Virus record (IMG/VR): IMGVR_UViG_3300048080_000243
Origin: a virus
Direction: 5' to 3' (one strand)
Length of the DNA stretch: 64,000 nucleotides
Both the position numbers and the translations under genes were made by a program. The notes beneath the pieces were generated by a model. It ran no database searches. It had not been told where the DNA came from and worked only from the letters and a program-made list of their open reading frames with translations. This document shows, piece by piece, positions 14,524-33,642 of this stretch (position 1 is its first letter; each line of letters starts with the position of its first letter).

Positions 14524-15147
14524 TCACCCCATATAAGGAAACTCCCCTGGCCCAGACGAATATTCGAATTCTCTGCCGGGGGTATCGGACTCACTACTTT
14601 TTTTCAAAGCGAGTTCTTGTTGTTGTACCCATGCGGTCGCCACACCCCAGATCAAAGCCATCCTTGGGTCCCCGGTCGCAAGAATGGCCCCAGCCATGGC
14701 GATAAGCGCAGCTTTTATTACGCCGAGGTTGAACAGGTCGAGTGTCGCTTCTTTCGCCAACGCTTCGTTCTTGGTGAACGCCGCAAGCTTGCGAAGATTT
14801 GCCCGCATTTCTTGATGTTGAACCGAACCATCCAACACCAACTCTTCCGGCTCCGAATAGTCCGTCTTCGTCCACTCACCACTCTGAACTTTGGCCTCGG
14901 CGTCTTCTGGAGAAAGCCGTCCCTTCTCCGGCATCGGCCGCCCGCGCTCCGTGTAAAACACCCACTTGGGCGAGATGCTTTCGACGGTGACGTGGTCCTG
15001 CTCCGTCTTCCGACGGTACATGTCGCCCACTTTTACCGACATCGGCGCGGCTTCCGTCGTCTGGAAGGTCGTCCCTGAAGAATCCATCGATTTATCAAGC
15101 ATAGGGCGCTCCCCGTAATCCGCCTGCCGAATACTAGTGGCGGCCAT
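14524..15147 (-). CDS. hypothetical protein with SH3-like module and SIRQA linker-like motif
   Basis: VKVGDMY...VTVESI...KVQSGEWTK resembles the modules at 19893-29206; hydrophobic C-terminal helices. Confidence 0.65.
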   Translation of the reverse strand: MAATSIRQADYGERPMLDKSMDSSGTTFQTTEAAPMSVKVGDMYRRKTEQDHVTVESISPKWVFYTERGRPMPEKGRLSPEDAEAKVQSGEWTKTDYSEPEELVLDGSVQHQEMRANLRKLAAFTKNEALAKEATLDLFNLGVIKAALIAMAGAILATGDPRMALIWGVATAWVQQQELALKKSSESDTPGREFEYSSGPGEFPYMG

Positions 15148-15953: not shown

Positions 15954-16303
15954 GCTACGACCACCGGGGGAGGCTCATCCGAGATCAGCGTACGCCACAG
16001 TTTCGCACCCGACACCGCCATGTCGTGCGCCGCCTTGTCCACCCCAGCCAACATCGGGAGAAGCGGAGCCGCCAATCGGTACGTGAGCGCCCGGAGAAAC
16101 CCCGGTTGGCCGCGCTTGATCTCATTCTTCACGATGGATGTTCCCTGCCTAGATTCTACCATCACGCGGGTGGCCCGCGCTAGGATTTCCAAAGCATCGG
16201 CCGCCTCACCACGGGCCATGAACGCCACCTGCCTGCCCTGATTGAGCAAGAGCGCCACGGGCTTGCCGGTCCGCCCGTCCTTCACCACGACGAATGACAC
16301 CAC
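15950..16303 (-). CDS. hypothetical protein
   Basis: GTG overlapping the MuF TAG; 117 aa. Confidence 0.6.
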   Translation of the reverse strand: MVSFVVVKDGRTGKPVALLLNQGRQVAFMARGEAADALEILARATRVMVESRQGTSIVKNEIKRGQPGFLRALTYRLAAPLLPMLAGVDKAAHDMAVSGAKLWRTLISDEPPPVVVA

Positions 16304-17919
16304 TACCTCACGCCCCCGAGATCGAAGAAGCTCCGACCCATGAAGTGCCGGTCGAGCATCCGGTTGTACGCTTGGTTGTCGAGGTAGTACAGCCGGATCG
16401 GTTCGATGATGTACAGTTGGTAACAGTCCGAGTAATACGCACGAGGCGACTCTTCGCCCATCGGAGACGCGAAGGCCGTCCCCCCAAACAACTGGACGCC
16501 CTCGATTCCCAGTACGAAGCCCTGCTCCTGTTTCTTCTCGTTGAAGCGTTCCTCCCACCACTTCTTTTCGTCTGCGGATAGCGCTTCCCACTGTCGGAAG
16601 CCATCTTCTCGCGCAAGCTGCCCCTGCGCGGGCCCGACGTCGGCCGACCACCGCGACACCAACATCGTACCATCTTCAAGCGTGTGGCTGGTGATAAGAC
16701 CCTGCAAGGATTCCGCGTCCGCCTTCATCTGTCGTTCAGCCTGCGAAAGGTCGAGCCCCTGATCGGTGTAGAACTTCAAGCGCTCTTGCTGCCACATGGG
16801 GTCCGCCGTCACCTCCGGCGTGAAATGCGTAACCGGCACGTTCTTGGGTACAGACCGACGCAGCAGATTGTCCACGCCCTGCGCAAACTCTACCGGTACG
16901 TTAGTCGCCGTAGCTTCCGGCACCGTGATGTTGGTGGATGCCGACCACGTTTCCGGAGGGTCCTTGGCGAACATCTGCCGCTCGACGTCACGAACGGCGT
17001 CCCAGTTGATGATGGGCTGAAACTCGCAACGGCAGTTCGGGTGGCTGTCCTCGGTGAGAGGATACTCCCGCGTGAGCAGTTCACTGATCTCGTACACGTT
17101 GTTGGGCGGTAGCGCGAGCTGCTTACACTTCTGACACGTCTTGATGTCGCTGATCGCGTGCCGAGTCACTTGCGTGTAGCCACGCTCGCGCCATTCCTCA
17201 AGCTGCGCCCGCGTGTACACGTTCATGGATTCCGTGCGGACGATGCGCTGATAAACGGGGCGCAGCTTGTCCCACGTGTAGCCAAGCCTGTCGCGGAACT
17301 GCTGCTCGGTCATCTCGGGCGTTTCGTAGTAATCCTTCTGCAAGACACGCAACGTGATGTCGGCCGTCCCACCACCAACCGACAATTCTTCACGAATCTT
17401 CTGAATCTGGTCAGGTCCGACCGTCTTGATCTTGGTGAAGGCTTGCGAGACGGCATCTTGGACGCGCACACGGTCCTGCGGGTCAAGCTGGGCACGCTTG
17501 CGGAACCGTGCCGTCCGGCCACGCTGGATGCACACACTGGGGTCCGCGAAACGTACAGCTTCTCCCTGCCCGTACTCCCACAGGATTTCGTGCATCCCCT
17601 CGATAGGCTTGGTGATCGCGTCAGCGACGTCACCGGCGTGACCGGAGATGGCACGCGAGAGATCTTCCAGCGAGAGACGGCCCTTCTCTTTCCAGAGTTG
17701 GATTACGTCCTCGATAAACTCGTCACGCTTGCGGGTGTGGTGCCGGACGACCTCGTTTTCCACCTGCACGAGGCTGCGCTTGACTTCCGGCGGGTGCCGC
17801 GTAACACGAAGCCTCTTCTGCCACTCGTTGAGCGGCACGAGGCCTTCGTATTCACCTGAGATCTGGCCGGGAGGGTCCGGTCGCTCGGCCGCACGCTTAG
17901 ACGCGGCCGTAATCATCAA
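16303..17919 (-). CDS. MuF/SPP1 gp7-like minor head protein with C-terminal degenerate zincin-like domain
   Basis: RIVRTESMNVY, DIKTCQKC, HPNCRC; C-terminal REDGF ... SPRAYYSDCYQLY..EPIRL. Confidence 0.85.
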   Translation of the reverse strand: MMITAASKRAAERPDPPGQISGEYEGLVPLNEWQKRLRVTRHPPEVKRSLVQVENEVVRHHTRKRDEFIEDVIQLWKEKGRLSLEDLSRAISGHAGDVADAITKPIEGMHEILWEYGQGEAVRFADPSVCIQRGRTARFRKRAQLDPQDRVRVQDAVSQAFTKIKTVGPDQIQKIREELSVGGGTADITLRVLQKDYYETPEMTEQQFRDRLGYTWDKLRPVYQRIVRTESMNVYTRAQLEEWRERGYTQVTRHAISDIKTCQKCKQLALPPNNVYEISELLTREYPLTEDSHPNCRCEFQPIINWDAVRDVERQMFAKDPPETWSASTNITVPEATATNVPVEFAQGVDNLLRRSVPKNVPVTHFTPEVTADPMWQQERLKFYTDQGLDLSQAERQMKADAESLQGLITSHTLEDGTMLVSRWSADVGPAQGQLAREDGFRQWEALSADEKKWWEERFNEKKQEQGFVLGIEGVQLFGGTAFASPMGEESPRAYYSDCYQLYIIEPIRLYYLDNQAYNRMLDRHFMGRSFFDLGGVR

Positions 17920-17999: not shown

Positions 18000-19883
18000 C
18001 TAAACTTTTGGGCTTGCGCGTCCCTCGGCCGACGAGCGCTTGCCCTGCCCGCCCGGAGTTACCCCCGGCACCTTCGTAATCGGCTGCGGTGCCTTGTGCG
18101 GGGTCGGAGCCTTGCCGCCACCGGCCGGGGCCTTACCGTTGACGCCGGTTTGCAGCTCCCACGTATCCGGGCTCACATCGTCCGACATGCCCGCAGCTTC
18201 GTCCGGCGTAAGTTCCGGCAACCGCTGGCGCAAAACTTCTTCTTGGGCGGCCTTGTTCGCAAGCTGGCGGTTCTGCTGGTACAACGGATCGACGACCGTT
18301 CCCTCTTCTTCTTGGATGCGCTTGACCTCACGCTCGGGATCGACACCCACAACTTCACACCACGAACGATAGCTGAGTTCCAGCTTGTCCCGCATTTGAC
18401 GATGGAACATCGACCGCTGAGGGTCTTCCACAAGCTGCAGGCGCGTCTTCCACTCAGCCTGCTTGGGAATGTCGAGTTCGCGATCCTTCCCCTTGACGCG
18501 AATGCCGTGGTCAAGCTCCGCCTTGGTCGGCCGGAAGAATCCGTGGTACAACGCCACCTGTTCGTACAGGTACTGGTTCCAGCCGAACACCTTCATGCGC
18601 TTAGCCTGATAACGGCCCTGCGTGATGGCGAAGGCCACGTTCGCCGTGGCATACGGCCCGCCATCCCCAAACATCGCGGCCGAACCATGAAGCGCGATCA
18701 ACACCCGGTCCTTGACGAACTCAAACTCCGGCACGATAGGCAAAAGCCGTCCGGCCGCACCTTCGAACGTAACGTTCACGCCCTTGTGCGTGACGATGGA
18801 GAACACCGGGTCGTGCGCCGCGTCCGACAGGAGCTTCCGGAAATCGTTCAGTTCTTCTTCGGACGGAATCCACTGATCGTCACCAAGCCGCCAGATTTCC
18901 TTCGGATAGATCTTCGAATCCGCGATGGCGTACTGGGCCTCACGAAGCTTGTCCTCGTAAAGCAGGTCCTTGAGTGCCCGGAGCAAGATCGGCGTTCCAC
19001 GGAGATCGTACGGCGAAGCTTTCCTCGCCACCTGCTTGATGTTGAACGGGTCGATGGGAATGGTCGAACCGTTCATCACGGCCCACACGATCACGGGGTC
19101 GAGGTTGGCCACGATCTCACGGTCGCGAGGGTCCTGCGAATGAACGAGCGCGTAGAGCAGTTCGTCCGGCTCGTACTCGATCTGCAGGTTGTCACCGTAC
19201 GCGAGCGGGTTGTCCCGAATGGTGATGTTGTCCGGATTGATCAACGCCACCTGATCGAAGAAGCCCATCTCCTCGTTGAAGTGGGCGTACGGGTAAGCTT
19301 CACCCAAAAGTTCCATCTCACGCGAAAGGTCAATGTTGACTTGGTCGAGTTTGATCGTCTCCCGCATGTGCTCAAACATCGTGAGCGCTTCTTTGCTATC
19401 CACGCCGACGAGTTCATACGCCGACATCGGGAACTCGCCGTTGAGATCAATCAGGTTGCCGACGATAGGGTGAAAGCGGTAGTAGTATCTGAGCCACTGA
19501 TTCAGAACTTTGTAATTGGTGGGTAAGTAGAAATTTATAATATTGAGCAGCGGGTTCCGGACTTCCGGTGCCGACACGGTCGTGCGGCCGGAGAAACCCG
19601 GAAGAGACGCCACGCCAAGATCCGTACCGCCACCGGGCCCAACGACACTGCCCGCCCCCGTGTTAGCGAGTTTCGTCCACGGATCGCCGAACTGCCCGAC
19701 CGACGAATGCTTGTGCCGGACGTAGCCGCCCGAACCGCCCTCGCGATTGTGCATACGAGGATATCGCCGGGTAACTTCCGCCATCTCCGTGCGCGAAGGC
19801 TCACGCACCACGGTCTTTCCGGCGGCCCGCTTTACGAGAAGCGGCTTACCTCGGTGATCGTATAGAACAGATTCACCCGGCAC
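18000..19883 (-). CDS. portal protein
   Basis: YYRFHPIVGNLIDL, LLGEAYP, INPDNITI, RKASPYDLRGTPILLRALKDL; position in the head module. Confidence 0.85.
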   Translation of the reverse strand: MPGESVLYDHRGKPLLVKRAAGKTVVREPSRTEMAEVTRRYPRMHNREGGSGGYVRHKHSSVGQFGDPWTKLANTGAGSVVGPGGGTDLGVASLPGFSGRTTVSAPEVRNPLLNIINFYLPTNYKVLNQWLRYYYRFHPIVGNLIDLNGEFPMSAYELVGVDSKEALTMFEHMRETIKLDQVNIDLSREMELLGEAYPYAHFNEEMGFFDQVALINPDNITIRDNPLAYGDNLQIEYEPDELLYALVHSQDPRDREIVANLDPVIVWAVMNGSTIPIDPFNIKQVARKASPYDLRGTPILLRALKDLLYEDKLREAQYAIADSKIYPKEIWRLGDDQWIPSEEELNDFRKLLSDAAHDPVFSIVTHKGVNVTFEGAAGRLLPIVPEFEFVKDRVLIALHGSAAMFGDGGPYATANVAFAITQGRYQAKRMKVFGWNQYLYEQVALYHGFFRPTKAELDHGIRVKGKDRELDIPKQAEWKTRLQLVEDPQRSMFHRQMRDKLELSYRSWCEVVGVDPEREVKRIQEEEGTVVDPLYQQNRQLANKAAQEEVLRQRLPELTPDEAAGMSDDVSPDTWELQTGVNGKAPAGGGKAPTPHKAPQPITKVPGVTPGGQGKRSSAEGRASPKV

Positions 19884-19892: not shown

Positions 19893-21230
19893 CTATTTCT
19901 TCCCGCGCAGCTTGTGAATCTTCCAGGCCGTGCCGTATTGTTTGTCGGGCTCACCGGGGTACTGCTTCTTGAGCTTTCCCATCTCCTCCTCGGAGACGCT
20001 GGGCGGCTTCTTGCTCTTCCGCACCATCTGGTCGATCTCTTCGTTCATGGCCGTGATGTCGGCCATCGAAGCCGATGCACACAACGCGTCGAACGCAGCA
20101 TCGACGTTTTCCATGCTCTTGCTGTCGGCCGCGCTCTCCGTGTCGATCTTCTCGAAACGGCTCGTGTCCGGCGCAGACTCGTCTCTCTCCGGCCAGTCTT
20201 CAGGATCGACAGAAGCCGCCGCTACCGGTTCATCACCGCCGACGTGACCCTCTCCGGCCGAATCGCCAGTCTCGCCTTCGACCACTTCCCAGTGCGAAGG
20301 GTCGATGTCGAAAACATCCTCTTCGCCTTGGTGATGCACGATGGGATGCCCGGTCGAAGGATTGTGGCCGATGACTTCGACCTGTTCGGACGGATCTTCC
20401 TTCCGGCGCATGACCGTGCCTTCGGGCGGATCGCCGCCTTCGGCGGCACGCTTGCGGAGAGAAGAAGTTTTCTTCAACTTCTTCGAACTTAGAATGACTA
20501 ACTGCTTTGGTCCCATTGGATGCGGAAATGAAGTGGTAGGTCCATACTCACCCATGGCCATAGCATCGTCGTCCCAGGACACCATAACAGTGTCCGTATT
20601 TGGTCTTACTTCAACCACCTCGCCAGTCTTATTCTGGTCTGTGGTAAGAGCCACTTCATCCCCGACCCCGAAATCTTGGATGGTGTTGACAGCACGCTTC
20701 TGGAGAGAAGCTCCCTTGCGCTTCTTGATCCTAACAGGCGCGGGTGAATCTTCCGTGCCGGAACCATCTTCATATTTTACATCGACGCGGTTGCTCCATG
20801 CATCCACATTGGTGACAACAGCAGGCTTATCTCCATCCACAAGAACGTCATCTCCAACTTTGAACTGCAACGCCTCTACCTGATCAGCGGCATTCTTGCG
20901 AAGGGACGCCTTTCGCAGGTTGAACGGCTGGATCACCTGCTCACGGCCATCCTGCTTTTTGATCTTGATAAGCTCGCCGTCATCTTCGACAACTTGAGCC
21001 GTACCCTCGAAATAGTATCCCTCGGGTTCACTGGTGACTTTGTCACCAACAGAGAAAGCCGGGGCCCCCTCAGGATGGTAAGCTGTCTTTACACCGAGAC
21101 CGCTCGCCATGCCGGTAAGTTCTGGGTCGCTGCCCGAACCTTCAAGTCCGGCCGTCAGCGTCTTGAGGAAACCGTGATCGTCCAAAGTCTGGCCGGTCTC
21201 CGGGTCCACCGGACGTGAAAGCTTCGGCAT
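19893..21230 (-). CDS. modular internal-head protein candidate (4 SH3-like modules, SLxKxA linkers)
   Basis: GVKTA, ASLRKNA, ASLQKRA and SSLRKRA each precede an FxVGDxV-type module; C-terminal KQYGTAWK. Confidence 0.75.
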   Translation of the reverse strand: MPKLSRPVDPETGQTLDDHGFLKTLTAGLEGSGSDPELTGMASGLGVKTAYHPEGAPAFSVGDKVTSEPEGYYFEGTAQVVEDDGELIKIKKQDGREQVIQPFNLRKASLRKNAADQVEALQFKVGDDVLVDGDKPAVVTNVDAWSNRVDVKYEDGSGTEDSPAPVRIKKRKGASLQKRAVNTIQDFGVGDEVALTTDQNKTGEVVEVRPNTDTVMVSWDDDAMAMGEYGPTTSFPHPMGPKQLVILSSKKLKKTSSLRKRAAEGGDPPEGTVMRRKEDPSEQVEVIGHNPSTGHPIVHHQGEEDVFDIDPSHWEVVEGETGDSAGEGHVGGDEPVAAASVDPEDWPERDESAPDTSRFEKIDTESAADSKSMENVDAAFDALCASASMADITAMNEEIDQMVRKSKKPPSVSEEEMGKLKKQYPGEPDKQYGTAWKIHKLRGKK

Positions 21231-21231
21231 C

Positions 21232-21366
21232 CTACTCCTCCTCGACCGGCGGTTCGAACTGCTTGCCCTTACGGGGCCTTCGAACTTCCCGCTGGCAAAC
21301 GATACATCCCGGCTTTCGCCGGACCTCCATTGGACAACGGGGCCTTCGTCTTCGGAAGTTCGCCAC
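21232..21366 (-). CDS. small basic Cys-containing ORF (44 aa, not in the track)
   Basis: GTG-ANFRRRRPRCPMEVRRKPGCIVC...EEE fills the gap exactly. Confidence 0.4.
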   Translation of the reverse strand: MANFRRRRPRCPMEVRRKPGCIVCQREVRRPRKGKQFEPPVEEE

Positions 21367-21370
21367 CAGC

Positions 21371-21754
21371 TTAGGTGGTCAGGTAGGGAGCTTTCACCAC
21401 GCTCTCGTCCCGCCTGTCGCGGAACGTCCGGTTCCCGTCCGTCCGCGTGGCCGGAAGATCGCCGTTGTCGATCTTGCTTGTCCCGCCCGGATCGACCGCG
21501 CGGAACTGCCGAGGATCGCCGGACTCGACGCGATCCACGCGAGTCTTGGTGCCCGCGAGGATGGCCGTCTGATGCGTCCGCAGGTTCGGGTCCGGCTGCG
21601 AGCCGTTGCCCGGTGTCGCACGCTGTTCGAACACCGCGTTCGCGTGGTTCACCGCCTGCAGCTTCTGCTCGGAACCGAGCTGATTCCCGCCATCGCTGAT
21701 CGGAAACGCGGCCCCATTCTCGACCCTGTTGTTCTGCGCGTTGTAATCGGACAT
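21371..21754 (-). CDS. hypothetical head-region protein
   Basis: 127 aa, GAGGAGG RBS. Confidence 0.7.
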   Translation of the reverse strand: MSDYNAQNNRVENGAAFPISDGGNQLGSEQKLQAVNHANAVFEQRATPGNGSQPDPNLRTHQTAILAGTKTRVDRVESGDPRQFRAVDPGGTSKIDNGDLPATRTDGNRTFRDRRDESVVKAPYLTT

Positions 21755-21769
21755 GTGACCCTCCTCGGA

Positions 21770-24700
21770 TCAGTCGGGCAAGAATGCCCGCGTTGCGTTC
21801 GGTTCTTTGTTTCTGGCAAATGGATCAAATCGCCAATCGCTGGTCCCCAGCGCCGCCAACACACCCTTTTCATCCAAGGGGTAGCTGACACCGGTGGACA
21901 TCACGATCTCGGTCGGCTCAACCGGTTCGCCATCTTGGATGGGAACCTCGACCGAACCCACGATCTTGCGGTTCTGTCTCGGAGAGTCAAGATGAACGCG
22001 CCAGCGCACCGAACCATGGACGATTTTACCATCCTCATCCACATCACTGGCAAGAGTCTTCTCGATATGAGCGGCCTCGATGAATACCGCGCCCTTGAGT
22101 CGCCGGAAAGCAGCTTGCATGGTCGCCGAAGTATTCACGATGGCGTCCTCGGCCGACGCGAACAACTTCCGGCGCTGTTCATCCGGGAACTCTTGGGACG
22201 ACAGGACCGGGTAGTGCTGCGCCATGAGAACACTGTCCGTGCGGACTTGCTCCTGCGAACGAAGGAGGGACATGGCCATCTCTTCGGGAACCGAGACTTC
22301 GGTCTGGCGCGGAACCACGCGGCCGGAAGACGGATCGAAGCATTCCTCTTCGAGGATCTGCACGACCATCATCTTGGTGCCGTGCTCGTCATAGAAGATC
22401 CGGCCGACACCGTCGGCGGTCTTTTGGAGGGAAGCTTTGCTCATCTTCGCGAGCGGAATCCACTCGGGAGGCCCACCATCGTCGAGTTGAACATGGTAAA
22501 GAGGCACGTCTCCGGGCTGCACGTCCATCACGACACCCGTTTTGTCCCCCGTTGCCTTATGAACCACAACATGGTCACCGGCTTTCAAGGTGGCGGCCTG
22601 CTTGCGGAGAGAGCCGGTCCGCTTGAAGCCCGCCTCGAAGCCTTTGCGGAACTCGTCTTCGTTTTCTTCACCGACTTCTCGGTTGATACCCTGGGTGTAC
22701 CAAACCTCCGTCCAAGCATCTTCCACATTGGTGGACCCGCTCTGTGCCATCTCGCGACCGAAGTCTTCCCCATCCTTGAACATTCGCGACTTGGCCTGCT
22801 GACGGAGAGAAGCCCGCTTCTGCAGCGAGGCCATCTGGTACTCCTCGGGCGCTCGCTCCAAGTCGGAAATCTGTTCCTTCGACAGCATGGGGCCGCTCCC
22901 GTCGTCCCAGTCCACGACGGCACGCTCGCCGAGAACGTCCTTCACCACACCCAGTCCAGCATACATGCCGCTCGAACGGGACTTGTGGTGCACGACGTCG
23001 CCGGGCTTGATCTCGGCTTGTTTGCGAAGAGAAGCAAACCTGAACTGGATACCATCCCGACGCAACATTTCTTCAATATCTTCTCTATCGGCTTCGAGGT
23101 CCATCACATCCAGGGCGTTGACTCCCCTTTCGATATTTTCAATCCCGTTCTGGGTGAGAACCTTGACCGCCCGTTGCTTTTCCACATCGTTGTTGAACAG
23201 GATCTGGACGGCTTGTTTCTGGAGAGAGCCGATCGATCTCAGCTTCTTGAGGTACTTGCTCGACCAAAGATCGTCCGTGACCTGTCCAATGCCCGGAATG
23301 TTCACCGGCGTGTCAAGACGAACGCGGTACATCTTCGTACCACCGTCCATCTCGATTCCCTGAATCGTCCCGGTCTTGCCGTCAAACGCCCCGCCGAAGT
23401 CTCCCGGCTGGGAAATCTTGACGTCATCGCCATCTTGCAACGCCTGCTTCCGCATCGAAGCGATCTGCAGATTCCGCTTGATCTCGGCCGTGCGCGTCTC
23501 AATCTGAGACTTCTCGTGCTCGTGGAACGCACGCCCAGCTTCGCCCTCATTGGGGAACCCGGTCACTTCAATGGCCGCCTGTTCGGGGATGGTCTGGGAA
23601 AGGTCGGCAGTACGACGGGAAGAGACCTTTTTGATAACACCGTCACGGATCTCTCGGTCCAACTCTTCACGAGACATCGTGTGGCTTCGGCCATCGCCAC
23701 TGTCGTAAACCGTGATTTCATCCGAAGAAATCTTCTGAATGTGGAGTTTTACGCCCGCCTGATACGCTTCTTCAGGCAACACAACCTGAAATACATCGCC
23801 AACTGCGGGCAAGTCAGCGGCCGTCCGGCGAGAAGCAGCACGGCCCTGCATCCACCGCTGCGCCGCGTTGGTGAACCCTTCGGTGAAGCCTTGTTCCCAC
23901 CGGTCCAAGTCCTCCGGCGAGACAGACCGGTCGTAATAAATCGACCCGGCCATCTGCTGGTGGTGTTCGAGGACTTCACCAGCGATCTCACCGGCGTTAC
24001 CGCTCTTGATCCGGTCCAGATCGTGTTGGTCCATGTCGGACGGGATGAACGAGCTTTCGCCTTCGGACTTCCCGTTGTCCCGGTAGCCCGCCGTGCGGAA
24101 GCTGTACGAATGCGGAAGCCCCTGCGCCACGGCCTGCTCGATGGTCTCGATGTCGTGCCCGAACTCCTGATGGAACGGGATCTGCTGCGGAAACAGCGGC
24201 ATCTCGCACTTCACGCAGTAGTGTCCCATCGGCTGCTGTTGCTCTTGAGCGACGGCCGCGTCCGGGTTGTCGTCCATCGGAGCCTTGCCGGGGATCTCTT
24301 CGGTCTGCATCTCAGCGTCCGAAGAAGCCCGACGACGAGAACCTTCGACAATCTCCAGAGTGCCCGCGTCGATACCACGAGCGATGTCATCGTGGTCATA
24401 CGACCACGCGGCACCAGTCTGAGTTTTTGCCCAGACCATGTGTGCATCACTTTGGGTTACCGTCAACACACCAAGCTCCGGATGGTTCGCGTCGGTGAAC
24501 TTGGTCCCGACAGACACCGCACGCTTCTTGAGAGAAGCCGTGCGAAGAGGCCGCACAACAGGAGACGCCTTGCGCAAGTCGGCAAGCGGCTGCTCGCTGG
24601 TGGAACCATCCTGCCACTGCACCATCACTTGGTCGCCCTCGACGTCGAGCACGATCCCGCTGGTCTTGTCGTCGATGTCGCAGAGAACCGCATCGCCGGG

Positions 24701-25495
24701 CTGAAGGTCGGACGCCGCACTGATTCCCTGAACACCCGGAACGGCCGTGCCCGCACGGGGCTGGTCGGCGTCGAGTTGGGGTGCAGAATCGGGTTCGGCG
24801 GCCCCAATCTTGCGGATCTCGTTTTCAGCGACGTAGAAAGGCGGTTCGGTGTCGTAGGGCGGGTCGAACTGGACCATGTACTTCATCTTGCCAGAACGGT
24901 CATCGAACCGCTCTTCGGTGACGGTGCCCGAAAGCTGCCCGGCCCCCGGAGTGCGCGCCTTCATGGTGACTTTGTCGCCGCGCTGAAATACGGCCGTACG
25001 AACGGAGGACACCTTGCGCAAATCGTGATGGGTTATCCAGCCCTCTTTCCCATCGTCCGTCTTCAACCAGTACATGTTGCGGTTCTCTACCTCGTCGCGT
25101 TCCACCTTCTGAATCACGCCAGAACCACCCAAGGTGGTGCTGACGCGTTCACCCACCTTGTAATCGTCTGCGGCCGTACGCGTAACGCCCGTCGCCCGCA
25201 TCTCGGTCAGCTTCTGGTGCTGGTCCTTGAAGATGTCGCCGAGTTCACGGTCCACGTCCGACCCGTTGTCGTCGGAAAAGCGTTGCGGTTCTTTCACTTC
25301 GATGTACTCTTCGGCCGCAGACCCCAGAGCAGGTTCATTGACGGGACCGACGTGTCCGGTTGGCGATGGAACGAACTTCTTGCGACCGGGGGCATCAAGG
25401 GCATCGCCAAGTTCGGCCGTCGCCACGACTTCACGTCCCTCAGGGACGAACAAACCTCCGTCACTGCCCGGTCCCCAGTTTTCGTCAATGGACAT
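21770..25495 (-). CDS. 1241-aa modular polyprotein-like protein (internal head/core candidate)
   Basis: About 14 S-x-R/K-x-A linkers separating SH3-like, C2H2, alpha/beta and helical modules. Confidence 0.8.
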   Translation of the reverse strand: MSIDENWGPGSDGGLFVPEGREVVATAELGDALDAPGRKKFVPSPTGHVGPVNEPALGSAAEEYIEVKEPQRFSDDNGSDVDRELGDIFKDQHQKLTEMRATGVTRTAADDYKVGERVSTTLGGSGVIQKVERDEVENRNMYWLKTDDGKEGWITHHDLRKVSSVRTAVFQRGDKVTMKARTPGAGQLSGTVTEERFDDRSGKMKYMVQFDPPYDTEPPFYVAENEIRKIGAAEPDSAPQLDADQPRAGTAVPGVQGISAASDLQPGDAVLCDIDDKTSGIVLDVEGDQVMVQWQDGSTSEQPLADLRKASPVVRPLRTASLKKRAVSVGTKFTDANHPELGVLTVTQSDAHMVWAKTQTGAAWSYDHDDIARGIDAGTLEIVEGSRRRASSDAEMQTEEIPGKAPMDDNPDAAVAQEQQQPMGHYCVKCEMPLFPQQIPFHQEFGHDIETIEQAVAQGLPHSYSFRTAGYRDNGKSEGESSFIPSDMDQHDLDRIKSGNAGEIAGEVLEHHQQMAGSIYYDRSVSPEDLDRWEQGFTEGFTNAAQRWMQGRAASRRTAADLPAVGDVFQVVLPEEAYQAGVKLHIQKISSDEITVYDSGDGRSHTMSREELDREIRDGVIKKVSSRRTADLSQTIPEQAAIEVTGFPNEGEAGRAFHEHEKSQIETRTAEIKRNLQIASMRKQALQDGDDVKISQPGDFGGAFDGKTGTIQGIEMDGGTKMYRVRLDTPVNIPGIGQVTDDLWSSKYLKKLRSIGSLQKQAVQILFNNDVEKQRAVKVLTQNGIENIERGVNALDVMDLEADREDIEEMLRRDGIQFRFASLRKQAEIKPGDVVHHKSRSSGMYAGLGVVKDVLGERAVVDWDDGSGPMLSKEQISDLERAPEEYQMASLQKRASLRQQAKSRMFKDGEDFGREMAQSGSTNVEDAWTEVWYTQGINREVGEENEDEFRKGFEAGFKRTGSLRKQAATLKAGDHVVVHKATGDKTGVVMDVQPGDVPLYHVQLDDGGPPEWIPLAKMSKASLQKTADGVGRIFYDEHGTKMMVVQILEEECFDPSSGRVVPRQTEVSVPEEMAMSLLRSQEQVRTDSVLMAQHYPVLSSQEFPDEQRRKLFASAEDAIVNTSATMQAAFRRLKGAVFIEAAHIEKTLASDVDEDGKIVHGSVRWRVHLDSPRQNRKIVGSVEVPIQDGEPVEPTEIVMSTGVSYPLDEKGVLAALGTSDWRFDPFARNKEPNATRAFLPD

Positions 25496-25504
25496 GTCGG
25501 CTCC

Positions 25505-27808
25505 TTACTTCAAACCGGAGAACAGCGTGGACACAGGAACTTGCGACTGTTGAGCCGGGAAAATCTCCGTGAGTTCACCCGACCCGCAACAGTCGGTCTC
25601 AACGATGGTCTTGACGACACGCGGCTGGCCTGCGGCCGTGCGAAGAGAACTCACCTTGGTAAAGTTCCTACGAAGAGTAACCTCGCGAACAGTGAGATTT
25701 TCACCATGTATGCCGCCTGTGGCGTCCGCAAGATACGCTTCCCCGCCATCAGTCCACACAACTCGCCAAGTAGTTCCAACGTCAGCGTAGTTGGTAAGAC
25801 CGGCTGCTCCCTCACCCTTGGTCTTGCGCTCAGCCTTCACAATGTCACCGGCCCGGATGTCTTCACCAACGGCAACACGGAGCGAAGAAGTTTTTATTAC
25901 ACCGGTGCTTTTCAAGTAGTCTAAGACCGATTGCTTGAACCCGGAGCCTCTTTGGAAAAACCCCTGATCAATCATTTCTTGCACTTCTTCACCCGTAAAC
26001 TCCGCCATATTTTTGTTGGTGCTTTCATCTTCAACCCAAATCCCTTCGCCGGTATCAGAGGACATGGACTGAACAACGTATGGACCCCAACCAGCAGTAC
26101 GAACAGCAGCCGTAGGAGGGGTGTACAAAACGAGTCGTTCCGAAAAATGCGGCCACTCGTCCATTCCGTAACGAAGTCGCGTTCCATCTTCGGCCGCAAC
26201 TTCAACTCCGCTCGAATCAGCTCGGGTGACCTTCCACGTCTCGTGCGTGTCCACGTGCATCAACGTGTCGCCCTGCTTGGGCGTAGAGGACAACGCCGCA
26301 CGACGAGACGAACCAATCTTCTGCCACTCCCCCGACGTCAACTTTCGATTGATCTGATCGACGGTGTAAGCGTAGAAGATCGTGGGGCTCACGTCCTCCT
26401 CGATGACTTCGACGGTGTTCTGGTACGTGCGATGAACCGAATACGCACGGCCGTCTTCGGTCAGGTACGAGTCACCGACAGCCGGAACCGATTCACCCTG
26501 CACAATCTTCTCGCCGCCGCGTGAGTCGGCGTCCAACTCGGGTGCTTTCAGAGACTTTGGGCCACCCTCTTGAGCGCGGTCAGCCGTCTTCACGTTCGTA
26601 GGATAACACATCGACCCGCCTTTAGTGAATGAGGCCGCTTTCTCCGAACACTCCGGACACGGAACGAAGTGCCACCCGTCATCGCTCGGATGCTCGGCTT
26701 CAGCCTCTTCCCAAAGCTGTTTGAAGACGGGGTCCTGCTCACCCTCTTGGATGGGTACAACGCCCGTACCCTCACACTGGCCCGTACATCCATTCGGGGG
26801 CCCGAAGATATCGTAACGGTCGGTGAACACAAGCTCCACCGACGCCACACGGATCTTCGTTCGCTTTCGACTCGCCCACACCGTCCAACGCCCGCCTTTG
26901 GTGAAAGCAGGCGCAGCATTCGGAGTCGTCAAATCCGGGGTTTCCTTCGAAGGATCGTGCAACTTCCGACGCTTCGGCGCTTTGTCTTCATCTTCTTCGG
27001 CAATAGTCGTACTGTGGCTGTCATCCCCACTCTCCAACCCCGCGATGATCTGGTCCACATCTACCGACGCCCGCACGTTCTTGTTCTCCTGCAAGCCTTC
27101 CCAGAACGTGCGATCCGCCGGATCTTCGCCCTCTTCTTCTTGAAACCGGCGAGGACGAGACTGCTGTTCATGACGAAAGTCCAAAGGCGTATTGGTTGGT
27201 CCAACATCAGTCGGATACTCGTTCTGCAACGGCACTTCGTCGCCCATGTTGCCGGGTTCCGGCTTCTGTTTGCGAAGAGTAGGATGCCAGTCTTTCGGGG
27301 CACTCGTAGCAAACATGCCGATATCCTGATCACGGAAGTTGCGTTCCGAACCTGCACCCTTTGACGCCGGACCTCGCTCCGTGATGAGACCACTGTCCAC
27401 ATCTTGTTTCCATTTCGAACGAGTCCACTTCAAAGGCATCGACTTCAGATCTGACTTGTCGTGCTCGCCGATGACTTCCGCGTCGGTCACTTGTTTGACC
27501 GTGAACGGAAACTCGCTCAGCGCACCAAGATCGATATGCGTAAACCTCTCCCCCACCTTCGGGTCTTCGAGGCTCGCAAAGTCCAGCCACGACCCGGCCA
27601 TGCCCTTGTCGGGCACGCCATGCACGTACTGGTCGATGCCACTCTTCGCCTCGCCGTACCGCGTTTTGAACTCTTGGTACAGCAGGGGACGGATCTCTTT
27701 GCCGAACTCTAAAACGGCCGCCTCAGCAACGTCGGCGAACAGGACGTTGTCGGCGAGTTGCCGGTTTACAAAAGCCCGAACTTCGGCCGGATCGACGCTG
27801 TCGGCCAC
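25505..27808 (-). CDS. 767-aa modular polyprotein-like protein
   Basis: NVRA, IRVA, NVKTA, SSRRAA, VRTA, SSLRVA and SSLRTA linkers; SH3-like modules; CxxxCxGxG...CPxC. Confidence 0.8.
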   Translation of the reverse strand: MADSVDPAEVRAFVNRQLADNVLFADVAEAAVLEFGKEIRPLLYQEFKTRYGEAKSGIDQYVHGVPDKGMAGSWLDFASLEDPKVGERFTHIDLGALSEFPFTVKQVTDAEVIGEHDKSDLKSMPLKWTRSKWKQDVDSGLITERGPASKGAGSERNFRDQDIGMFATSAPKDWHPTLRKQKPEPGNMGDEVPLQNEYPTDVGPTNTPLDFRHEQQSRPRRFQEEEGEDPADRTFWEGLQENKNVRASVDVDQIIAGLESGDDSHSTTIAEEDEDKAPKRRKLHDPSKETPDLTTPNAAPAFTKGGRWTVWASRKRTKIRVASVELVFTDRYDIFGPPNGCTGQCEGTGVVPIQEGEQDPVFKQLWEEAEAEHPSDDGWHFVPCPECSEKAASFTKGGSMCYPTNVKTADRAQEGGPKSLKAPELDADSRGGEKIVQGESVPAVGDSYLTEDGRAYSVHRTYQNTVEVIEEDVSPTIFYAYTVDQINRKLTSGEWQKIGSSRRAALSSTPKQGDTLMHVDTHETWKVTRADSSGVEVAAEDGTRLRYGMDEWPHFSERLVLYTPPTAAVRTAGWGPYVVQSMSSDTGEGIWVEDESTNKNMAEFTGEEVQEMIDQGFFQRGSGFKQSVLDYLKSTGVIKTSSLRVAVGEDIRAGDIVKAERKTKGEGAAGLTNYADVGTTWRVVWTDGGEAYLADATGGIHGENLTVREVTLRRNFTKVSSLRTAAGQPRVVKTIVETDCCGSGELTEIFPAQQSQVPVSTLFSGLK

Positions 27809-27817
27809 ACGATACCC

Positions 27818-29206
27818 CTAGTCAGAGATCGCAGCGATGTGGTCGCAACGACGTTGCGTTGTACCACCGCAAGAACACGCTCCCTTGTTGAGGTCAGTCA
27901 GCACGCGGGCCCCAGTCTTGATACTGGTATGCTGCCAGATGTTCGGCCGAATCTCAGTGATCTGTACGCCGCCCAGACGGAACGTGGTGTGAACCGCTTC
28001 GATCAGACGGTCACCCTCGGCGTTGCTGTCTTCGCCCGTGCTCACGTCCTTGTGGTCGTTGTCCATCCCACGCGCCGGATTGCTGTGCTTGATGTCGCGG
28101 AACTCATCGTCCTGATTGCCCTCGCCAGCACCCACCTTCGACACTTCGGGATGCGCGACCAGTTCTTCCCACTCGGCGAGCGACATGACGTGCGGGCCGT
28201 CCGTATCCATGCCCCTCTGGACGGTGTACGTAACCGTCCCACCACCGACAGCCACGACGTTGATCTGGCCCTCCGGCGTGTCGTAGGACTCGCCACGCTT
28301 CGGACCCGATGCCGTCTTCATCTTGACGACATTCTGCCCTTCCTCGATCCACATGTGACCGCAGTTGCGACAATCGATGGCCGCCTCGGAAACGAGGTAG
28401 TGCTCGACGTCGCCGCAGTCCGGGCACTTCAGCCGGGCCATCTTGACCTCAAGTCCGGCCGTGAGATCATCGCCCTCGTTCACGCGGCTGCCCTCACGAC
28501 GCCGGAACTTGTCCTCGTCCTTGATGTACTTGCCGAGAGAGAAGCCCGAATCCGGAAGGTCCGTGAGATCCTGTTGACTGATCGGAACTTCGGACGGCTC
28601 GCCACCACGACGTTCCTTCCAGTCTCCGCCCGACGGAACGAGGTCGCCGCGAGCAGCGACCTTCTTGAGATCCGAGATGGGCGTTGTGTACGTTCCGTCG
28701 CTGAACTCAACCAAGATCGCTTCGATTCCCGGCGTTGCAGACTGCACCGCAACCCCAGTTTTGCCAGAAGAAATCTCTCTTACTCGGTCCCCTTCCTCGA
28801 TATCACCAGCCGCCGACCGCCCGGTCGTGTGCTCGGCGTCGTGCTCGTCCTGAATCGGCATCTTGTCCGGAGCTTGATCCGTCGGCATGTTCGGGTCACG
28901 ATAGTTGCCCTGCGACGACGCCGTGCGACGACCTACACCGGCCAGCCGCAGAACGTCGGCCGCCATTTCCTCGTGCAAGACGCCCTCTTGGATCATGCGT
29001 GCGCCGAGCCCCGTCAAAAGCGCGTCATCAGGTTGCCCCGGAAGCAACCGCTCGGTAAGCCCAGCAAGCGGATCAAAATCGTCGGCGGACGACACGACGA
29101 CTTCTTCAACCTGCTTGCCCTGACTTCCGGGGACTGCACGCGCCACGCGGATTTGTCCGCTGCGGTGTGTGCCCTGTGCTACGGACCAGTCAACCGATGA
29201 GGGCAT
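27818..29206 (-). CDS. 462-aa modular protein with Zn ribbon and C-terminal SWIM-type finger
   Basis: IRVA, RRTA and MKTA linkers; CPDC...CRNC; CSC-GGTTQRR-CDH. Confidence 0.75.
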   Translation of the reverse strand: MPSSVDWSVAQGTHRSGQIRVARAVPGSQGKQVEEVVVSSADDFDPLAGLTERLLPGQPDDALLTGLGARMIQEGVLHEEMAADVLRLAGVGRRTASSQGNYRDPNMPTDQAPDKMPIQDEHDAEHTTGRSAAGDIEEGDRVREISSGKTGVAVQSATPGIEAILVEFSDGTYTTPISDLKKVAARGDLVPSGGDWKERRGGEPSEVPISQQDLTDLPDSGFSLGKYIKDEDKFRRREGSRVNEGDDLTAGLEVKMARLKCPDCGDVEHYLVSEAAIDCRNCGHMWIEEGQNVVKMKTASGPKRGESYDTPEGQINVVAVGGGTVTYTVQRGMDTDGPHVMSLAEWEELVAHPEVSKVGAGEGNQDDEFRDIKHSNPARGMDNDHKDVSTGEDSNAEGDRLIEAVHTTFRLGGVQITEIRPNIWQHTSIKTGARVLTDLNKGACSCGGTTQRRCDHIAAISD

Positions 29207-29238: not shown

Positions 29239-29670
29239 TTACGTTACTATACCACGCGGCCGAAGCTTCATCAATTCCAACGCGGCCAGATTCACCTTCA
29301 CCCGCTCAATCTTGGTCTTAGTGCTGAGGGTAGAATCCATCCACCCACAGTACAGCTTCATGTTGTGCCGTGCCCTCAGCCAACACGCATGCGGGTTCAC
29401 AACAAGCAAACAGTCGTTGCAAGTCGTCGGCGTTTGGCCATCCATCTGCCGAGCGTGGTTTAGCTGTTTCCGGACTTCCGGTTTGGGCTTCAATTCTTCT
29501 GGTGTCACCCAGCGAAAGTGCACACTGTTGGGCCCAAGACGTTTGATGTGTATGACTTTGTCGAGAAACGCCACGTAGATGGCGTGGCCCACTTCCAGAT
29601 GCCGAATCGCTTCTTCCACCATCGCCCGCAATTCGGGCTGGGGGATGGCGGAGACATCGCTCTCAGTCAC
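29239..29670 (-). CDS. hypothetical protein
   Basis: 143 aa, CNDC. Confidence 0.65.
   Translation of the reverse strand: MTESDVSAIPQPELRAMVEEAIRHLEVGHAIYVAFLDKVIHIKRLGPNSVHFRWVTPEELKPKPEVRKQLNHARQMDGQTPTTCNDCLLVVNPHACWLRARHNMKLYCGWMDSTLSTKTKIERVKVNLAALELMKLRPRGIVT
29246..29274 (-). promoter_or_regulatory. sigma70-like promoter for the modular-protein operon
   Basis: TTGATG-17 nt-TATAGT with TGn extension, about 40 nt before ATG 29206 (CAGGAGG RBS). Confidence 0.7.
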
Positions 29671-30845: not shown

Positions 30846-31217
30846 CTATCTGAGCATCAGGTTGTTGAGTTGTTCTGCTGGAACCCGGTACTGTTCGCAC
30901 TCAGGCATCTCGGCGTCCGAGTCCACCGGTTTACCCGCAAGGTGACACGACTCCACGCCACAAGTCAGCATGGCCTTCGTCTCACCTGTCCTATCATTTC
31001 GGAAATCCGCGTTCTGAAGATTCGCGCACGGGAAGTTGTAGGCATCGCCCACCGCCGAATGAAACTCCTCCGACGCCAAAATCTCCTGCCCCCGCTCTTC
31101 GAGCGCCCTCGCAGTGAGCGCAAGCTTCGGAGAGATGCTGACGAATGGCTCAAGAATCTTTCTCGCATAACGAATCGCCCGCAACTCGTCCAACAACGGA
31201 ATGCCGTATCTTACCAC
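30846..31217 (-). CDS. hypothetical protein
   Basis: 123 aa, overlaps the terminase end. Confidence 0.65.
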   Translation of the reverse strand: MVRYGIPLLDELRAIRYARKILEPFVSISPKLALTARALEERGQEILASEEFHSAVGDAYNFPCANLQNADFRNDRTGETKAMLTCGVESCHLAGKPVDSDAEMPECEQYRVPAEQLNNLMLR

Positions 31218-33235
31218 CCGGACGTCCTCCCGCCACGACCACGGCTTGAACCGCGCCCGCCAACAGGCAAACCAACAGAACGCCTCGGCATGATGGATGT
31301 CGGCAGCATGTTTGGCGGCAAAGTCGGGTCCGGGGGCACCTGTGAGTTATTTCGGATAGCGGTCATGTCAGCAGAAGAGACTGGGAAACCTTGGGCCTTG
31401 GGCGAGAACGGGTTGCCACTGGCGTTCCCAGCCGACGTGTGCTGGGCCTTCACCCCGACGCTCCGTCTCTTAGCGAACGCCCACAATGCTGCTTGCGGGT
31501 CTTTTAGCCTACCATTGAGCAGTCTGGCGCACCCGGCGAGAGCGTCCGCGATGTCCTTGGAACCAAAAGTCGGCGACCCCTCAGGCGGGTGATCCACTTT
31601 GTTCGACCCCACTCGGACGAGCCGCGTCAACTCCTGCGTCTGTAACGGGTGGTCGAGAAGTTCGGCCGCGCCCGTGTAAATCAGGCTCTGCAAAAGCGCG
31701 TAATCGGCATAGCTGACCACGTGCTCTTCCGTGTACACGCGATGACGCTTCAAAGCTTCTTGCAGCGTGGCTGAGTTCCACGCATCACACCCGAACATCC
31801 TAATCCGAAGACCGCGCCGCATAAGGTCAAGAATCAAAGCTTCGACGCTGGCAACCGCCACTTGAAGCTGGCGCGACGGGTCGGGCTGCCACACGACGAC
31901 TGCCTCTTCGATCAGCTTATTCACGGTCGTCTGTTGAATCTCGCCTGAAGTTTCAGACTTGATCTCGACCTTCACAGGTTCGCCACGGGCGATAACAAGC
32001 GCTGCACGGTTACTGACTCGCCCAAGGTCAACCCACCCAACGCGCGAATGTTGCATTTCCTGTACGCTGTTGATAAGCCACTCACCGATTTCCTGCCCGA
32101 GCATCCTCTCACGCTTCGAACGCCCGTTCATGGCGTCCACAAGTTCCACTTCCACCAACGTGGAGCGAGTGCGGAAGATGGGAATACGATTCTTGTTGAT
32201 ACATTCGGTGATGCGTTCCGGGTACTCGAAAAACGCCCCAGCGATCTTGGGCGGGATCGTGAGGTACTTGGCCTTGGCGTCCGCCGGGGTAGTCTTGAAC
32301 TCCTTCTCGAAGTCAATCGGGATCTTGAATCCTTCAAAGTCGAAAGTCTGATCCGAGAAACTGCCCGGCGGCCGGACTTCCCACGTTGACGCGCGTGCAA
32401 CTTTGAACCGCAGCGTCTCGTTGAGCGCCTGCTCGTACATTCGCATCGTGAAATCCGTGTCCGACTCCGAACGCGGAAACGACATAACGATCCCACGCCA
32501 TCGTCCGGGGAAGCGGGAGTTCGCCGATGTCGTGAGCGTGCTGTAAATCTTGTCGCCGTTGGCAATCTTGGTCTCGCTCTTGAAGGCCGAAGCCTCGTCC
32601 ATGACCCAGAACAAGATGTCGTGTCCTTCGTAGCTCTCCTGTTGGCTGTGCTCAGAGATGGCGCGAATGCCTTTCGGAAAGTTGATGCGGTCTTCTTTGA
32701 TCCGCACGTACTCGCTGGCCGGACTGAAGCTAGCCATGGACGGAACCATGCGCCCCCGGTGGAACATGCGGTAACGCTTCCGAAGCCAAACCCACGCCTT
32801 CACCAACTCCACAAGCGTGGCGAAATACACATCACTCGCCTGATCCGAACTGTACGCCACGTTGACCAGACTGATGAAGCCACGGCCCTTGAAACCCAAC
32901 CACTCGCGTGGCTTGTGCAGACACAGGAGGATGTAGATAACGTACATGGCGATTGCACGCGCCATCGTGTCTTTGCCGGAACCCTTGCCGAGAAGCCAAA
33001 TGGCCGTACTCGCGCGGTCAAGGTCGCGCTCGAAGAACCTCGTCCCGTCGGGGCCGACGAAGTCCTCCATGAACTCGTACTGCTTGTCGGAAAACCGGAA
33101 GTTCAGGTGTTCCGGCGACTCACAAAACTCGCGAAGTTTGATAGGACGTTCGATCCAGTCGGTGACAGTGCTAATGCTGGCGATATCACCTTTGCCGTCC
33201 TTCAAACCCGCTTCGACAATACTGCGAAGCGACAT
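31211..33235 (-). CDS. terL: terminase large subunit
   Basis: Walker A GKGSGKD, VNVAYS, Walker B FWVMDEAS, RNase H-like VDLG, CDAWN, KDIADALAG. Confidence 0.92.
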   Translation of the reverse strand: MSLRSIVEAGLKDGKGDIASISTVTDWIERPIKLREFCESPEHLNFRFSDKQYEFMEDFVGPDGTRFFERDLDRASTAIWLLGKGSGKDTMARAIAMYVIYILLCLHKPREWLGFKGRGFISLVNVAYSSDQASDVYFATLVELVKAWVWLRKRYRMFHRGRMVPSMASFSPASEYVRIKEDRINFPKGIRAISEHSQQESYEGHDILFWVMDEASAFKSETKIANGDKIYSTLTTSANSRFPGRWRGIVMSFPRSESDTDFTMRMYEQALNETLRFKVARASTWEVRPPGSFSDQTFDFEGFKIPIDFEKEFKTTPADAKAKYLTIPPKIAGAFFEYPERITECINKNRIPIFRTRSTLVEVELVDAMNGRSKRERMLGQEIGEWLINSVQEMQHSRVGWVDLGRVSNRAALVIARGEPVKVEIKSETSGEIQQTTVNKLIEEAVVVWQPDPSRQLQVAVASVEALILDLMRRGLRIRMFGCDAWNSATLQEALKRHRVYTEEHVVSYADYALLQSLIYTGAAELLDHPLQTQELTRLVRVGSNKVDHPPEGSPTFGSKDIADALAGCARLLNGRLKDPQAALWAFAKRRSVGVKAQHTSAGNASGNPFSPKAQGFPVSSADMTAIRNNSQVPPDPTLPPNMLPTSIMPRRSVGLPVGGRGSSRGRGGRTSGW
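31346..31354 (-). promoter_or_regulatory. CGAAATAAC motif, copy 3 (inside the terL 3' end)
   Basis: Exact match; in-frame GTG 6 nt downstream; about 130 nt before gene 31217. Confidence 0.45.
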
Positions 33236-33240
33236 GTGCT

Positions 33241-33642
33241 CTACTTTTTCACTGCCCTGTACGTCTCCACAAGGATCGGGACAATGAACGTCGTCACCAG
33301 CAAAGTCCACCGCTGATAACCCGGCATCGCGTAATGTCCCTTCCCCGCCTGTTCACCGATGAACCGATATTTGAGGTCTTCTGCATACCGATCAGTCGGC
33401 ACTACTTGGAAACCGTACATCTCGTTCTCTGGAACGAAGCGTCCTCTACCAAGACTCGGAATGTCTACCGGCACGCCGACTTTGTAGAGAGGACGAACTT
33501 CGACGGGAGTAAAAGAAGCCGCAGGAGCGGGCATGGGGGGTGTCGTGGCCGGAACCACAACGGCCGCAACGACTGTTGGCGTCGTTGCGGGGGGTCCCGC
33601 TCCTGCGGCGGCAAACGCGGTGAAAAGCAGCGCGAACAACAT
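33241..33642 (-). CDS. exported/membrane protein of the lysis region
   Basis: Signal-like N-terminus, P/T/A-rich linker, C-terminal hydrophobic segment. Confidence 0.65.
   Translation of the reverse strand: MLFALLFTAFAAAGAGPPATTPTVVAAVVVPATTPPMPAPAASFTPVEVRPLYKVGVPVDIPSLGRGRFVPENEMYGFQVVPTDRYAEDLKYRFIGEQAGKGHYAMPGYQRWTLLVTTFIVPILVETYRAVKK

Follow-up and report, generated by a model that had tools for sequence, protein, structure and literature searches.

A portal-adjacent cluster of linker-segmented, putative precursor proteins in a phage from a sediment metagenome

Gene cluster, linkers and modules

The stretch of phage DNA analysed here, hereafter the window, comprises 64 kb of a 73,362-bp contig from a sediment metagenome (IMG/VR record IMGVR_UViG_3300048080_000243), and all of the window's genes lie on the minus strand. 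Between the genes for the large terminase subunit and the portal are four open reading frames (ORFs), whose products A, B, C and D (445, 1241, 767 and 462 amino acids (aa), respectively) are divided into small modules by a repeated basic linker and are treated below as putative polyproteins. An initial annotation had pointed out this cluster, and the four ORFs, their positions and their boundaries could be confirmed. The principal features are as follows, beginning with D, the first gene of the cluster.

27818-29206, minus strand: putative polyprotein D, 462 aa, with three loose linker sites (GRRTA, GRSA and SIKTGA)
28655-28810, minus strand: Tudor/SH3-like module of D (aa 133-184), recognized from sequence
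28352-28435, minus strand: zinc ribbon of D, C-x2-C...C-x2-C, recognized from sequence
25505-27808, minus strand: putative polyprotein C, 767 aa, a 409-aa N-terminal part followed by four modules
within 25505-27808, minus strand: linkers VKTA, SSRRAA, VRTA, SLRVA and SLRTAA, between the modules of C
26609-26791, minus strand: zinc module of C, C-x3-C-x-G-x-G...C-P-x-C, inside the 409-aa N-terminal part
25664-25864, minus strand: Tudor/SH3-like module of C, one of its four modules
21770-25495, minus strand: putative polyprotein B, 1241 aa, with 16 linker sites
25007-25171, 24806-24991, 24563-24715, 23240-23443, 22850-23014 and 22430-22597, minus strand: six Tudor/SH3-like modules of B
24146-24223, minus strand: C2H2-like module of B, C-x2-C...H-x5-H, recognized from sequence
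22793-22828, minus strand: tandem double linker SLQKRA-SLRQQA of B, with no residues between the copies
21773-22414, minus strand: C-terminal domain of B, 214 aa
21371-21754, minus strand: ORF of 127 aa between B and A, lacking the linker motif
19893-21230, minus strand: putative polyprotein A, 445 aa, with the conserved N-terminal leader MPKLSRPVDPETGQTLDD
20904-21065, 20712-20873 and 20463-20681, minus strand: three Tudor/SH3-like modules of A, recognized from sequence
within 19893-21230, minus strand: linkers SLRKNA, SLQKRA and SLRKRA, between the modules of A

B additionally carries helical and alpha/beta modules, and the C-terminal part of A is an acidic region of 183 aa. The 127-aa ORF, which the initial annotation did not mention, is conserved in position, with a 128-aa ORF occupying the equivalent place beside a homologue of A in another phage (P0193, see below). 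The frame 5' of A stays open for 198 codons and was rejected as a coding region, being Arg-rich and devoid of a start codon.

A loose definition of the linker, S-x-[RKQ]-[KRTQV]-x?-A together with R/K-T-A variants, recovered 28 sites (4 in A, 16 in B, 5 in C and 3 in D), in agreement with the earlier estimate of about 28. An S-anchored pattern is present in 20 copies, as against 0.59 +/- 0.75 expected from 2000 composition-preserving shuffles (maximum 4), and occurs 7 times in the remaining minus-strand ORFs of the window (17,062 aa); the strict form S[LM][RKQ][KTQ]xA gives 12 copies against 0.05 expected by shuffling (maximum 1), with 2 more in those other ORFs. The extended consensus of the sites is [K/R]-x-[A/S/G]-S-L-[R/Q/K]-[K/T]-x-A, and an 11-residue scoring matrix trained on them found no comparable match in any other protein of the window. 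Basic residues are concentrated in the linkers, and nearly all of the predicted pieces between them are acidic (isoelectric points of 4.4-6.8). Fifteen six-residue linkers show a pairwise identity of 59%, versus 24% for the cores of the SH3-like modules. The linker peptide itself is under selection, since identical peptides (SLRKQA, SLQKRA) use different codons: they differ at three of six codons, all synonymously, which also rules out recent duplication or gene conversion and contradicts conservation of the linkers at the level of DNA.

The Tudor/SH3-like module (F.VGD.V...G.V..V...V.W.DG) was initially thought to follow most copies of the linker; only 11 sites precede one (three in A, six in B and one each in C and D), while the remainder flank zinc, helical, alpha/beta and other beta modules as well as four larger terminal domains. 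The zinc modules that had been reported alongside are indeed present in B, C and D, with the Cys and His patterns listed above. Modelling with AlphaFold2 (AF2) on an alignment of the 11 paralogous modules, which match one another only at E-values of 1e-3 to 1e-5, yielded a five-strand barrel with a predicted local distance difference test score (pLDDT) of 85, both flanking linkers falling below 60 and being accordingly predicted as disordered. Foldseek searches with this barrel recovered Tudor, chromo and KOW domains (TMq 0.6-0.73, root-mean-square deviation 1.5-2.5 A), and the structural neighbours of A in the ESM Atlas are KOW/Tudor repeat proteins, the look-ups in this resource giving no usable feature matches. 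On these models the repeated module is a small five-stranded barrel of the Tudor/SH3-like fold. Five further beta modules, a second group considered as SH3-like kin, were rejected as such for want of a detectable relation to it.

A search with the module profile against 1.84 billion representatives gave 1490 matches, among which only P0193 and P0148 were useful; the linker motif is absent from all top-ranked matches. Four of the latter that were inspected (P0068, P0069, P0072 and P0077) were rejected as relatives, as they are eukaryotic-looking tandem Tudor repeats; the proteins of the set P0068-P0077 are very long, with up to 30 near-identical Tudor-like repeats (GDKVEARYKGR..YDVDYDDGEKE). 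Pfam and PHROG scans of the four polyproteins retrieved no family above threshold and no hallmark effector domain. We considered an embedded peptidase and rejected it: the zincin motif HExxH is absent from A, B and C, D has only a non-canonical H..EH, none is found in the equivalent polyproteins of two related phages (L013 and L017), and the four polyproteins have no Pfam peptidase match. Any processing must therefore occur in trans.

Surroundings of the cluster and the same locus in related phages

The cluster is embedded among head genes, and the following neighbouring features bear on its interpretation (here and below, a slash marks the end of a motif).

31211-33310, minus strand: large terminase subunit (phrog_2, E 1e-10), the upstream boundary of the locus
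29246-29274, minus strand: sigma-70-like promoter match TTGATG-17-TATAGT with an extended -10 TG, 40 nt upstream of the start of D
18000-19883, minus strand: portal (phrog_16240, E 2e-47), 9 nt downstream of A
16303-17919, minus strand: MuF-like minor head protein (PF04233, E 2e-4; phrog_115, E 1e-11)
14524-15147, minus strand: ORF of 207 aa starting MAATSIRQA/DYGE, with a leader of nine residues whose end is the linker motif

Given that gaps of only 9 nt separate the D, C and B genes from one another and A from the portal gene, these genes probably form one operon. The promoter match upstream of D is weak on its own, as 2 promoter-like sites were observed in 16 kb against 4 expected. The remaining window genes, as seen in Pfam, PHROG and other scans, include a PurZ-like synthetase, a family-A polymerase and proteins of the Mre11/Rad50 type. 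The PurZ-type adenylosuccinate-synthetase homologue (37237-38328, minus strand; phrog_1211, E 1e-72) adjoins a kinase gene, and this pair suggests that the phage might have a 2-aminoadenine (Z) genome. The head-gene module of the window phage is split, in that roughly 17 kb, occupied by genes for HNH, membrane, DHH phosphoesterase, helicase, methylase and other proteins, lie between the MuF gene and a protease-scaffold gene, while the counterpart in related phages is compact, with the portal, MuF, three small ORFs, the protease-scaffold fusion and the capsid protein within about 8 kb. No capsid-protein gene is present in the window, and the neighbouring contig stops inside the protease-scaffold gene.

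The window phage is novel, and its sequence is present in one DNA run only. Its nearest cultured relative by portal is Bacillus phage G (gp14, 31% identity). A megablast search with the cluster and a tblastn search with B against 50,697 phage records produced no match, and a word-indexed search of 5.8 billion proteins recovered only B itself for B, i.e. no whole-protein homologue; for C the same search found C itself and P0216, a protein that has the zinc module in common with it. Portal homologues at 40-50% identity are, for their part, common in metagenomes, and the gene order on their contigs is large ORFs, portal, MuF (about 500 aa), three small ORFs, the protease-scaffold fusion (870-990 aa), a protein of about 158 aa and the capsid protein (about 325 aa). 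A portal-profile scan of IMG/VR gave 24 loci, and the portals of the relatives compared for motif content are 38-53% identical to that of the window phage. Comparison of module content across related phages, which the initial annotation had advocated, indeed brought out modular, motif-rich ORFs at the portal-adjacent locus. The pattern [KR][KRTQ]xA occurs 12 times just upstream of the portal in L013, against 1.9 expected (z 7.7), 11, 12 and 5 times in three portal-upstream ORFs of L016 and L017, against about 2 (z 5-6), and 7 times against 1 in L015. Several of these motif-enriched ORFs also match the SH3-like modules, and in L004 (366-1697) such modules are split by AMKKNA, SSVKKA, NVKKKA and AMKKSA. 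Each phage uses one uniform linker of its own, namely [AS]SKRTA in L017, AMK[RK]KA in L013, VSSKKTA in L009 and LSMRKTA in L011. In the cultured phages, gp20 of phage G carries RLKKTA and gp21 IKKTA, the latter protein also having an SH3-like module, and gp87 of Mycobacterium phage Myrna, encoded upstream of the portal, has eight R-R-x-A sites.

The content of the locus is hypervariable between these relatives. P0193 is a homologue of A in the same synteny, with the leader and the GASLQKQA and GSFQRQA linkers in common, and its module set differs. The zinc module of C is 58% identical to the one in P0216 of another phage, from which it follows that modules move between phages while the type of linker is kept. 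P0216 itself (L011:10001-11809, 602 aa) is encoded between an intein-bearing portal gene and an intein-bearing protease-scaffold gene, and its LSMRKTA/LNMRKQA linkers flank HEAT-like repeats (recognized by eye), a sigma-70-like segment and the C-type zinc module; the sigma-70-like segment is a reading of the sequence that has no family match, and a separate sigma-factor gene follows in the same locus. An InPase domain (PF18823, E 2e-32 and 1e-23) is found at this locus only in proteins of the relatives and not in the four of the window.

In the relatives, ORFs at the locus often open with a short leader whose last residues form the motif (MMRTRKTA, MSNRKQA, MNKIA, MIRLA), and gene boundaries and linkers thus appear to be interchangeable. 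The 207-aa ORF of the window begins in the same manner and has a weak match to the Tudor-like Phage_ProQ_C_like family (E 0.007) that fails the Pfam cut-off; its product is a candidate for another substrate or another protein of the head interior. Interruptions are frequent in the portal genes of this family: in a relative with 81% identity the portal is in two pieces (L006:1383-3746), with a LAGLIDADG ORF just upstream of the N-terminal one, and intein/Hint domains (PF14890, PF05203, PF14528) are present in several portal homologues (P0045, P0051, P0056 and P0057).

Candidate protease and interpretation of the cluster

The initial annotation had further recommended looking for a prohead protease elsewhere in the genome, and a candidate was recovered just outside the window. 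A contig (L005) that is 100% identical to positions 1-6611 of the window continues 4.3 kb further and encodes, 1.6 kb past the left edge of the window (L005:8252-10927), a protease-scaffold fusion of 892 aa up to the end of the contig. This protein is about 50% identical to the fusions of the relatives, matches the phrog_18299 profile 'head maturation protease' (E 5e-8), and has H31, H61, S119 and H145 as residues invariant in five homologues. A Foldseek search of the PDB with a model of its protease domain returned herpesvirus assemblins as all of the top 50 matches, at E-values of 2e-3 to 7e-2 that are weak because the AF2 model is poor (pLDDT 49), and an assemblin/HK97-like fold is tentatively assigned to the domain. 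The scaffold part contains AASLKRA, AVKTA, LRTA and TRSA. Pfam, PHROG and other scans of the window revealed no other protease candidate. A homologue of the fusion is also found in Myrna, where gp97 (L036:22577-26212), annotated as 'tape measure', lies just upstream of decoration-like and major head genes; its N-terminal 200 aa or so resemble the protease domains as judged by eye.

Sites of the K/R-x-A type recur in the head proteins of these phages. Capsid proteins of the relatives have [LIV]-[KR]-[KR]-E-A at residues 45-60, exactly at the start of the shorter capsid protein of phage G, gp27. The portal of the window phage has LLVKRA/AGK in an N-terminal extension ahead of the conserved core, and K/R-x-A sites are likewise found in the N-terminal extensions of the portals of relatives. 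RFRKRA/QL in the MuF-like protein lies, by eye, approximately where the relatives have LMRKKA/A, MRRTA/A or LIRKKA/A. Each protease domain is followed after 30-60 residues by a K/Q-x-A site, VKQA/A in the window phage and LQQA/K, AKVA/A, AKQA/A or KKTA/E in relatives. The published proteome of phage G maps no cut sites.

The linker-segmented architecture is a real and conserved feature, and from it we infer a mechanism by which the four proteins might be packaged into the head as precursors of head-internal proteins, with the assemblin-like protease cleaving their linkers in trans; in our estimate the chances of this being correct are about even. They would be made late together with the portal and taken into the prohead, where the phage's own serine protease, the protease-scaffold fusion's N-terminal domain, would cut the exposed linkers, the last Ala of the extended consensus being the residue most likely to precede the cut. 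Ala is, by analogy, likely to be the P1 residue, because herpesvirus assemblin, likewise part of a fusion with its scaffold, cleaves after Ala in YLQA-T and VQA-S (PMC4498786). About 30 pieces would be released, comprising eleven Tudor/SH3-like barrels of 6-9 kDa, similarly sized modules of the zinc-ribbon, helical and other beta types, and, as larger products, four end domains (20-46 kDa). These might then stay with the DNA in the capsid and enter the host at infection, and the locus as a whole would behave as a shufflable cargo locus.

Cleavage by a prohead protease had already been proposed in the initial annotation, and of the explanations considered it is the best supported, given the selection on the linker peptide, the predicted disorder of the linkers, the corresponding locus of the relatives, the assemblin-like fusion and the K-x-A sites. 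Several observations weigh against it. Portal, MuF and capsid proteins lack the full linker specific to their own phage and carry no more than the looser K-x-A, and the co-variation expected between substrates and protease is therefore not seen; a matrix built from the window linkers found no site above background, other than single ones, in the head proteins of the relatives and phage G. Moreover, a pattern as short as [KR]-x-A is frequent wherever basic residues cluster, so that its occurrences in head proteins could reflect chance or ordinary conservation, and linkers could also be uniform within a phage if modules had been duplicated repeatedly, each with the linker attached to it. The kinship of the protease finds no echo in Pfam, in sequence and profile searches of the PDB or in an hhalign comparison with HK97 gp4, and the assemblin matches are weak and come from a poor model. 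A predicted protease-linker complex scored 0.02, which weighs neither for nor against.

That a phage's own classic protease substrates lack the full motif would also be expected if the proteins were uncleaved 'beads on a string', present at full length in the virion or not part of it, with the linker serving as a structural or binding element, for instance a docking peptide for the portal, the scaffold, DNA or a chaperone. Basic linkers beside acidic modules could indeed serve electrostatic roles. We regard this alternative as unlikely, as the linker is predicted to be disordered and the tandem SLQKRA-SLRQQA, with nothing between its copies, makes little sense as a spacer. The coincidence of ORF boundaries with linkers and the N-terminal leaders that end in the motif also suit removable junctions better than binding sites.

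A cytoplasmic polyprotein strategy, in which a host protease or another phage protease would cut the chains in the producing cell or after injection, appears less probable again. Exposed linkers rich in Arg and Lys could be cut by many proteases, and processing after delivery has been proposed for polyvalent proteins (PMC5512222), but Ala at P1 fits an assemblin-like enzyme (PMC4498786). The loose similarity of the head-protein motif to the linker would also be in keeping with a different enzyme; however, the window offers no second protease candidate, and the locus lies inside the head-gene module, 9 nt from the portal gene. T4 core proteins and the HK97 delta domain are chopped up and leave the prohead. 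A comparable role as sacrificial core or scaffold filler, building or sizing the prohead and then departing rather than acting as cargo, seems least likely of all, for although the many closely spaced sites, the scaffold-like acidic composition and the position of the genes in the head module would fit it, a long dedicated scaffold is already present in the protease fusion, folded 7-kDa barrels and zinc modules would be unlikely to exit through capsid pores, InPase enzymes and a sigma-like module in the proteins of relatives suit cargo, and the locus is, unlike scaffolds, hypervariable between relatives.

If packaging and cleavage in the prohead are the correct interpretation, phages related to phage G and the cluster-C mycobacteriophages could have a true polyprotein cargo strategy, in which an assemblin-like protease, by cutting dozens of uniform linkers after Ala, frees Tudor/SH3-like, zinc and helical mini-proteins of 6-10 kDa, and in relatives also enzymes and a sigma-like module, that are injected with the DNA; this wider generalization is tentative, and we hold it to be rather doubtful at present. 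Any module inserted between two linkers would be packaged and then freed, so that the locus would serve as a plug-in site for new early-acting or counter-defence proteins; the acquisition and exchange of small cargo proteins by such phages would thereby be explained. Should the linkers be cut, the cluster would be a case of a highly regular tailed-phage polyprotein, a single chain having as many as 16 proposed sites, and the phage would have a capsid protease that, like assemblin, cuts after alanine, which would further connect the two lineages in function. A simple sequence rule for predicting packaged and injected proteins would likewise follow for a large and mostly uncultured group of phages, to which phage G and Myrna offer cultivable relatives, and with a defined pair of linker and protease foreign proteins could be loaded into capsids.

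Comparison with known systems

The proposed processing is reminiscent of that of head proteins in T4, whose prohead protease gp21 recognizes the motif L/I-x-E. The short leaders that end in the motif (e.g. MAATSIRQA) resemble the T4 capsid-targeting sequence. Giant phages of the phiKZ type have comparable proteases, phiKZ gp175 and SPN3US gp245, the latter with the motif A-x-E (PMC10052503). As in T4, phiKZ and SPN3US, a single capsid protease is here proposed to act at a short motif in many head proteins, which in those systems include internal ones that are ejected. In SPN3US 13 of the 14 mapped sites remove an N-terminal propeptide (PMC10052503), and the propeptide of gp53 has several copies of the motif in one substrate, like the proteins of the window; here, however, as many as 16 sites in one protein, distributed over its full length, would divide it into mini-domains that fold independently. 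In contrast to T4 and phiKZ, P1 would be Ala after basic residues rather than Glu, and the protease is fused to the scaffold.

In organization the fusion resembles herpesvirus pUL26, in which the serine protease is also N-terminal to the scaffold and assemblin cuts after Ala at short sites (PMC4498786). The sites named there are located in the protease-scaffold precursor pUL26 and in the scaffold pUL26.5 (PMC4498786), whereas roughly 28 are found here in separate, cargo-like polyproteins.

The neighbourhood of the cluster recalls the polyvalent proteins (Iyer et al. 2017), large multi-domain proteins of phages and conjugative elements that are encoded beside portal, terminase and MuF genes, are mosaics that shuffle their domains, and for which packaging and delivery along with the DNA have been predicted (PMC5512222). 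The four ORFs between the terminase and portal genes, with a MuF-like gene next, show the same arrangement, and relatives of the window phage carry at the equivalent locus an InPase domain of the polyvalent family, a domain typical of these head-packaged proteins (PMC5512222). A polyvalent-like organization is also apparent in Virus Rctr197k, where an ORF of 2175 aa between terminase and portal (Virus Rctr197k_045, L002:6991-13518), annotated as 'similar to hypothetical protein', appears by eye to encode a multi-enzyme protein with HExxH motifs and GNAT-like, HAD-like and PRTase-like segments, with R-T-A-A at several of the apparent domain joints. Unlike polyvalent proteins, those of the window consist mostly of Tudor/SH3-like modules of 60-90 aa and zinc modules joined by one uniform linker. 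None of the polyvalent hallmarks (MuF fusion, ART, InPase, PBECR, lysozyme, LPDs and others) is found in them, and the embedded zincin-like MPTase that is proposed to release the domains of polyvalent proteins has no counterpart. The main text of the paper describing polyvalent proteins mentions neither 'linker' nor 'SH3' (PMC5512222).

The initial annotation had regarded this architecture as uncharacterised, and full-text literature searches indeed found no description of such an arrangement; the novelty is nevertheless of a limited kind. Thus, in conclusion, the architecture is a variant of two described themes, the polyvalent proteins (PMC5512222) and the processing of head proteins in T4, phiKZ and SPN3US (PMC10052503).

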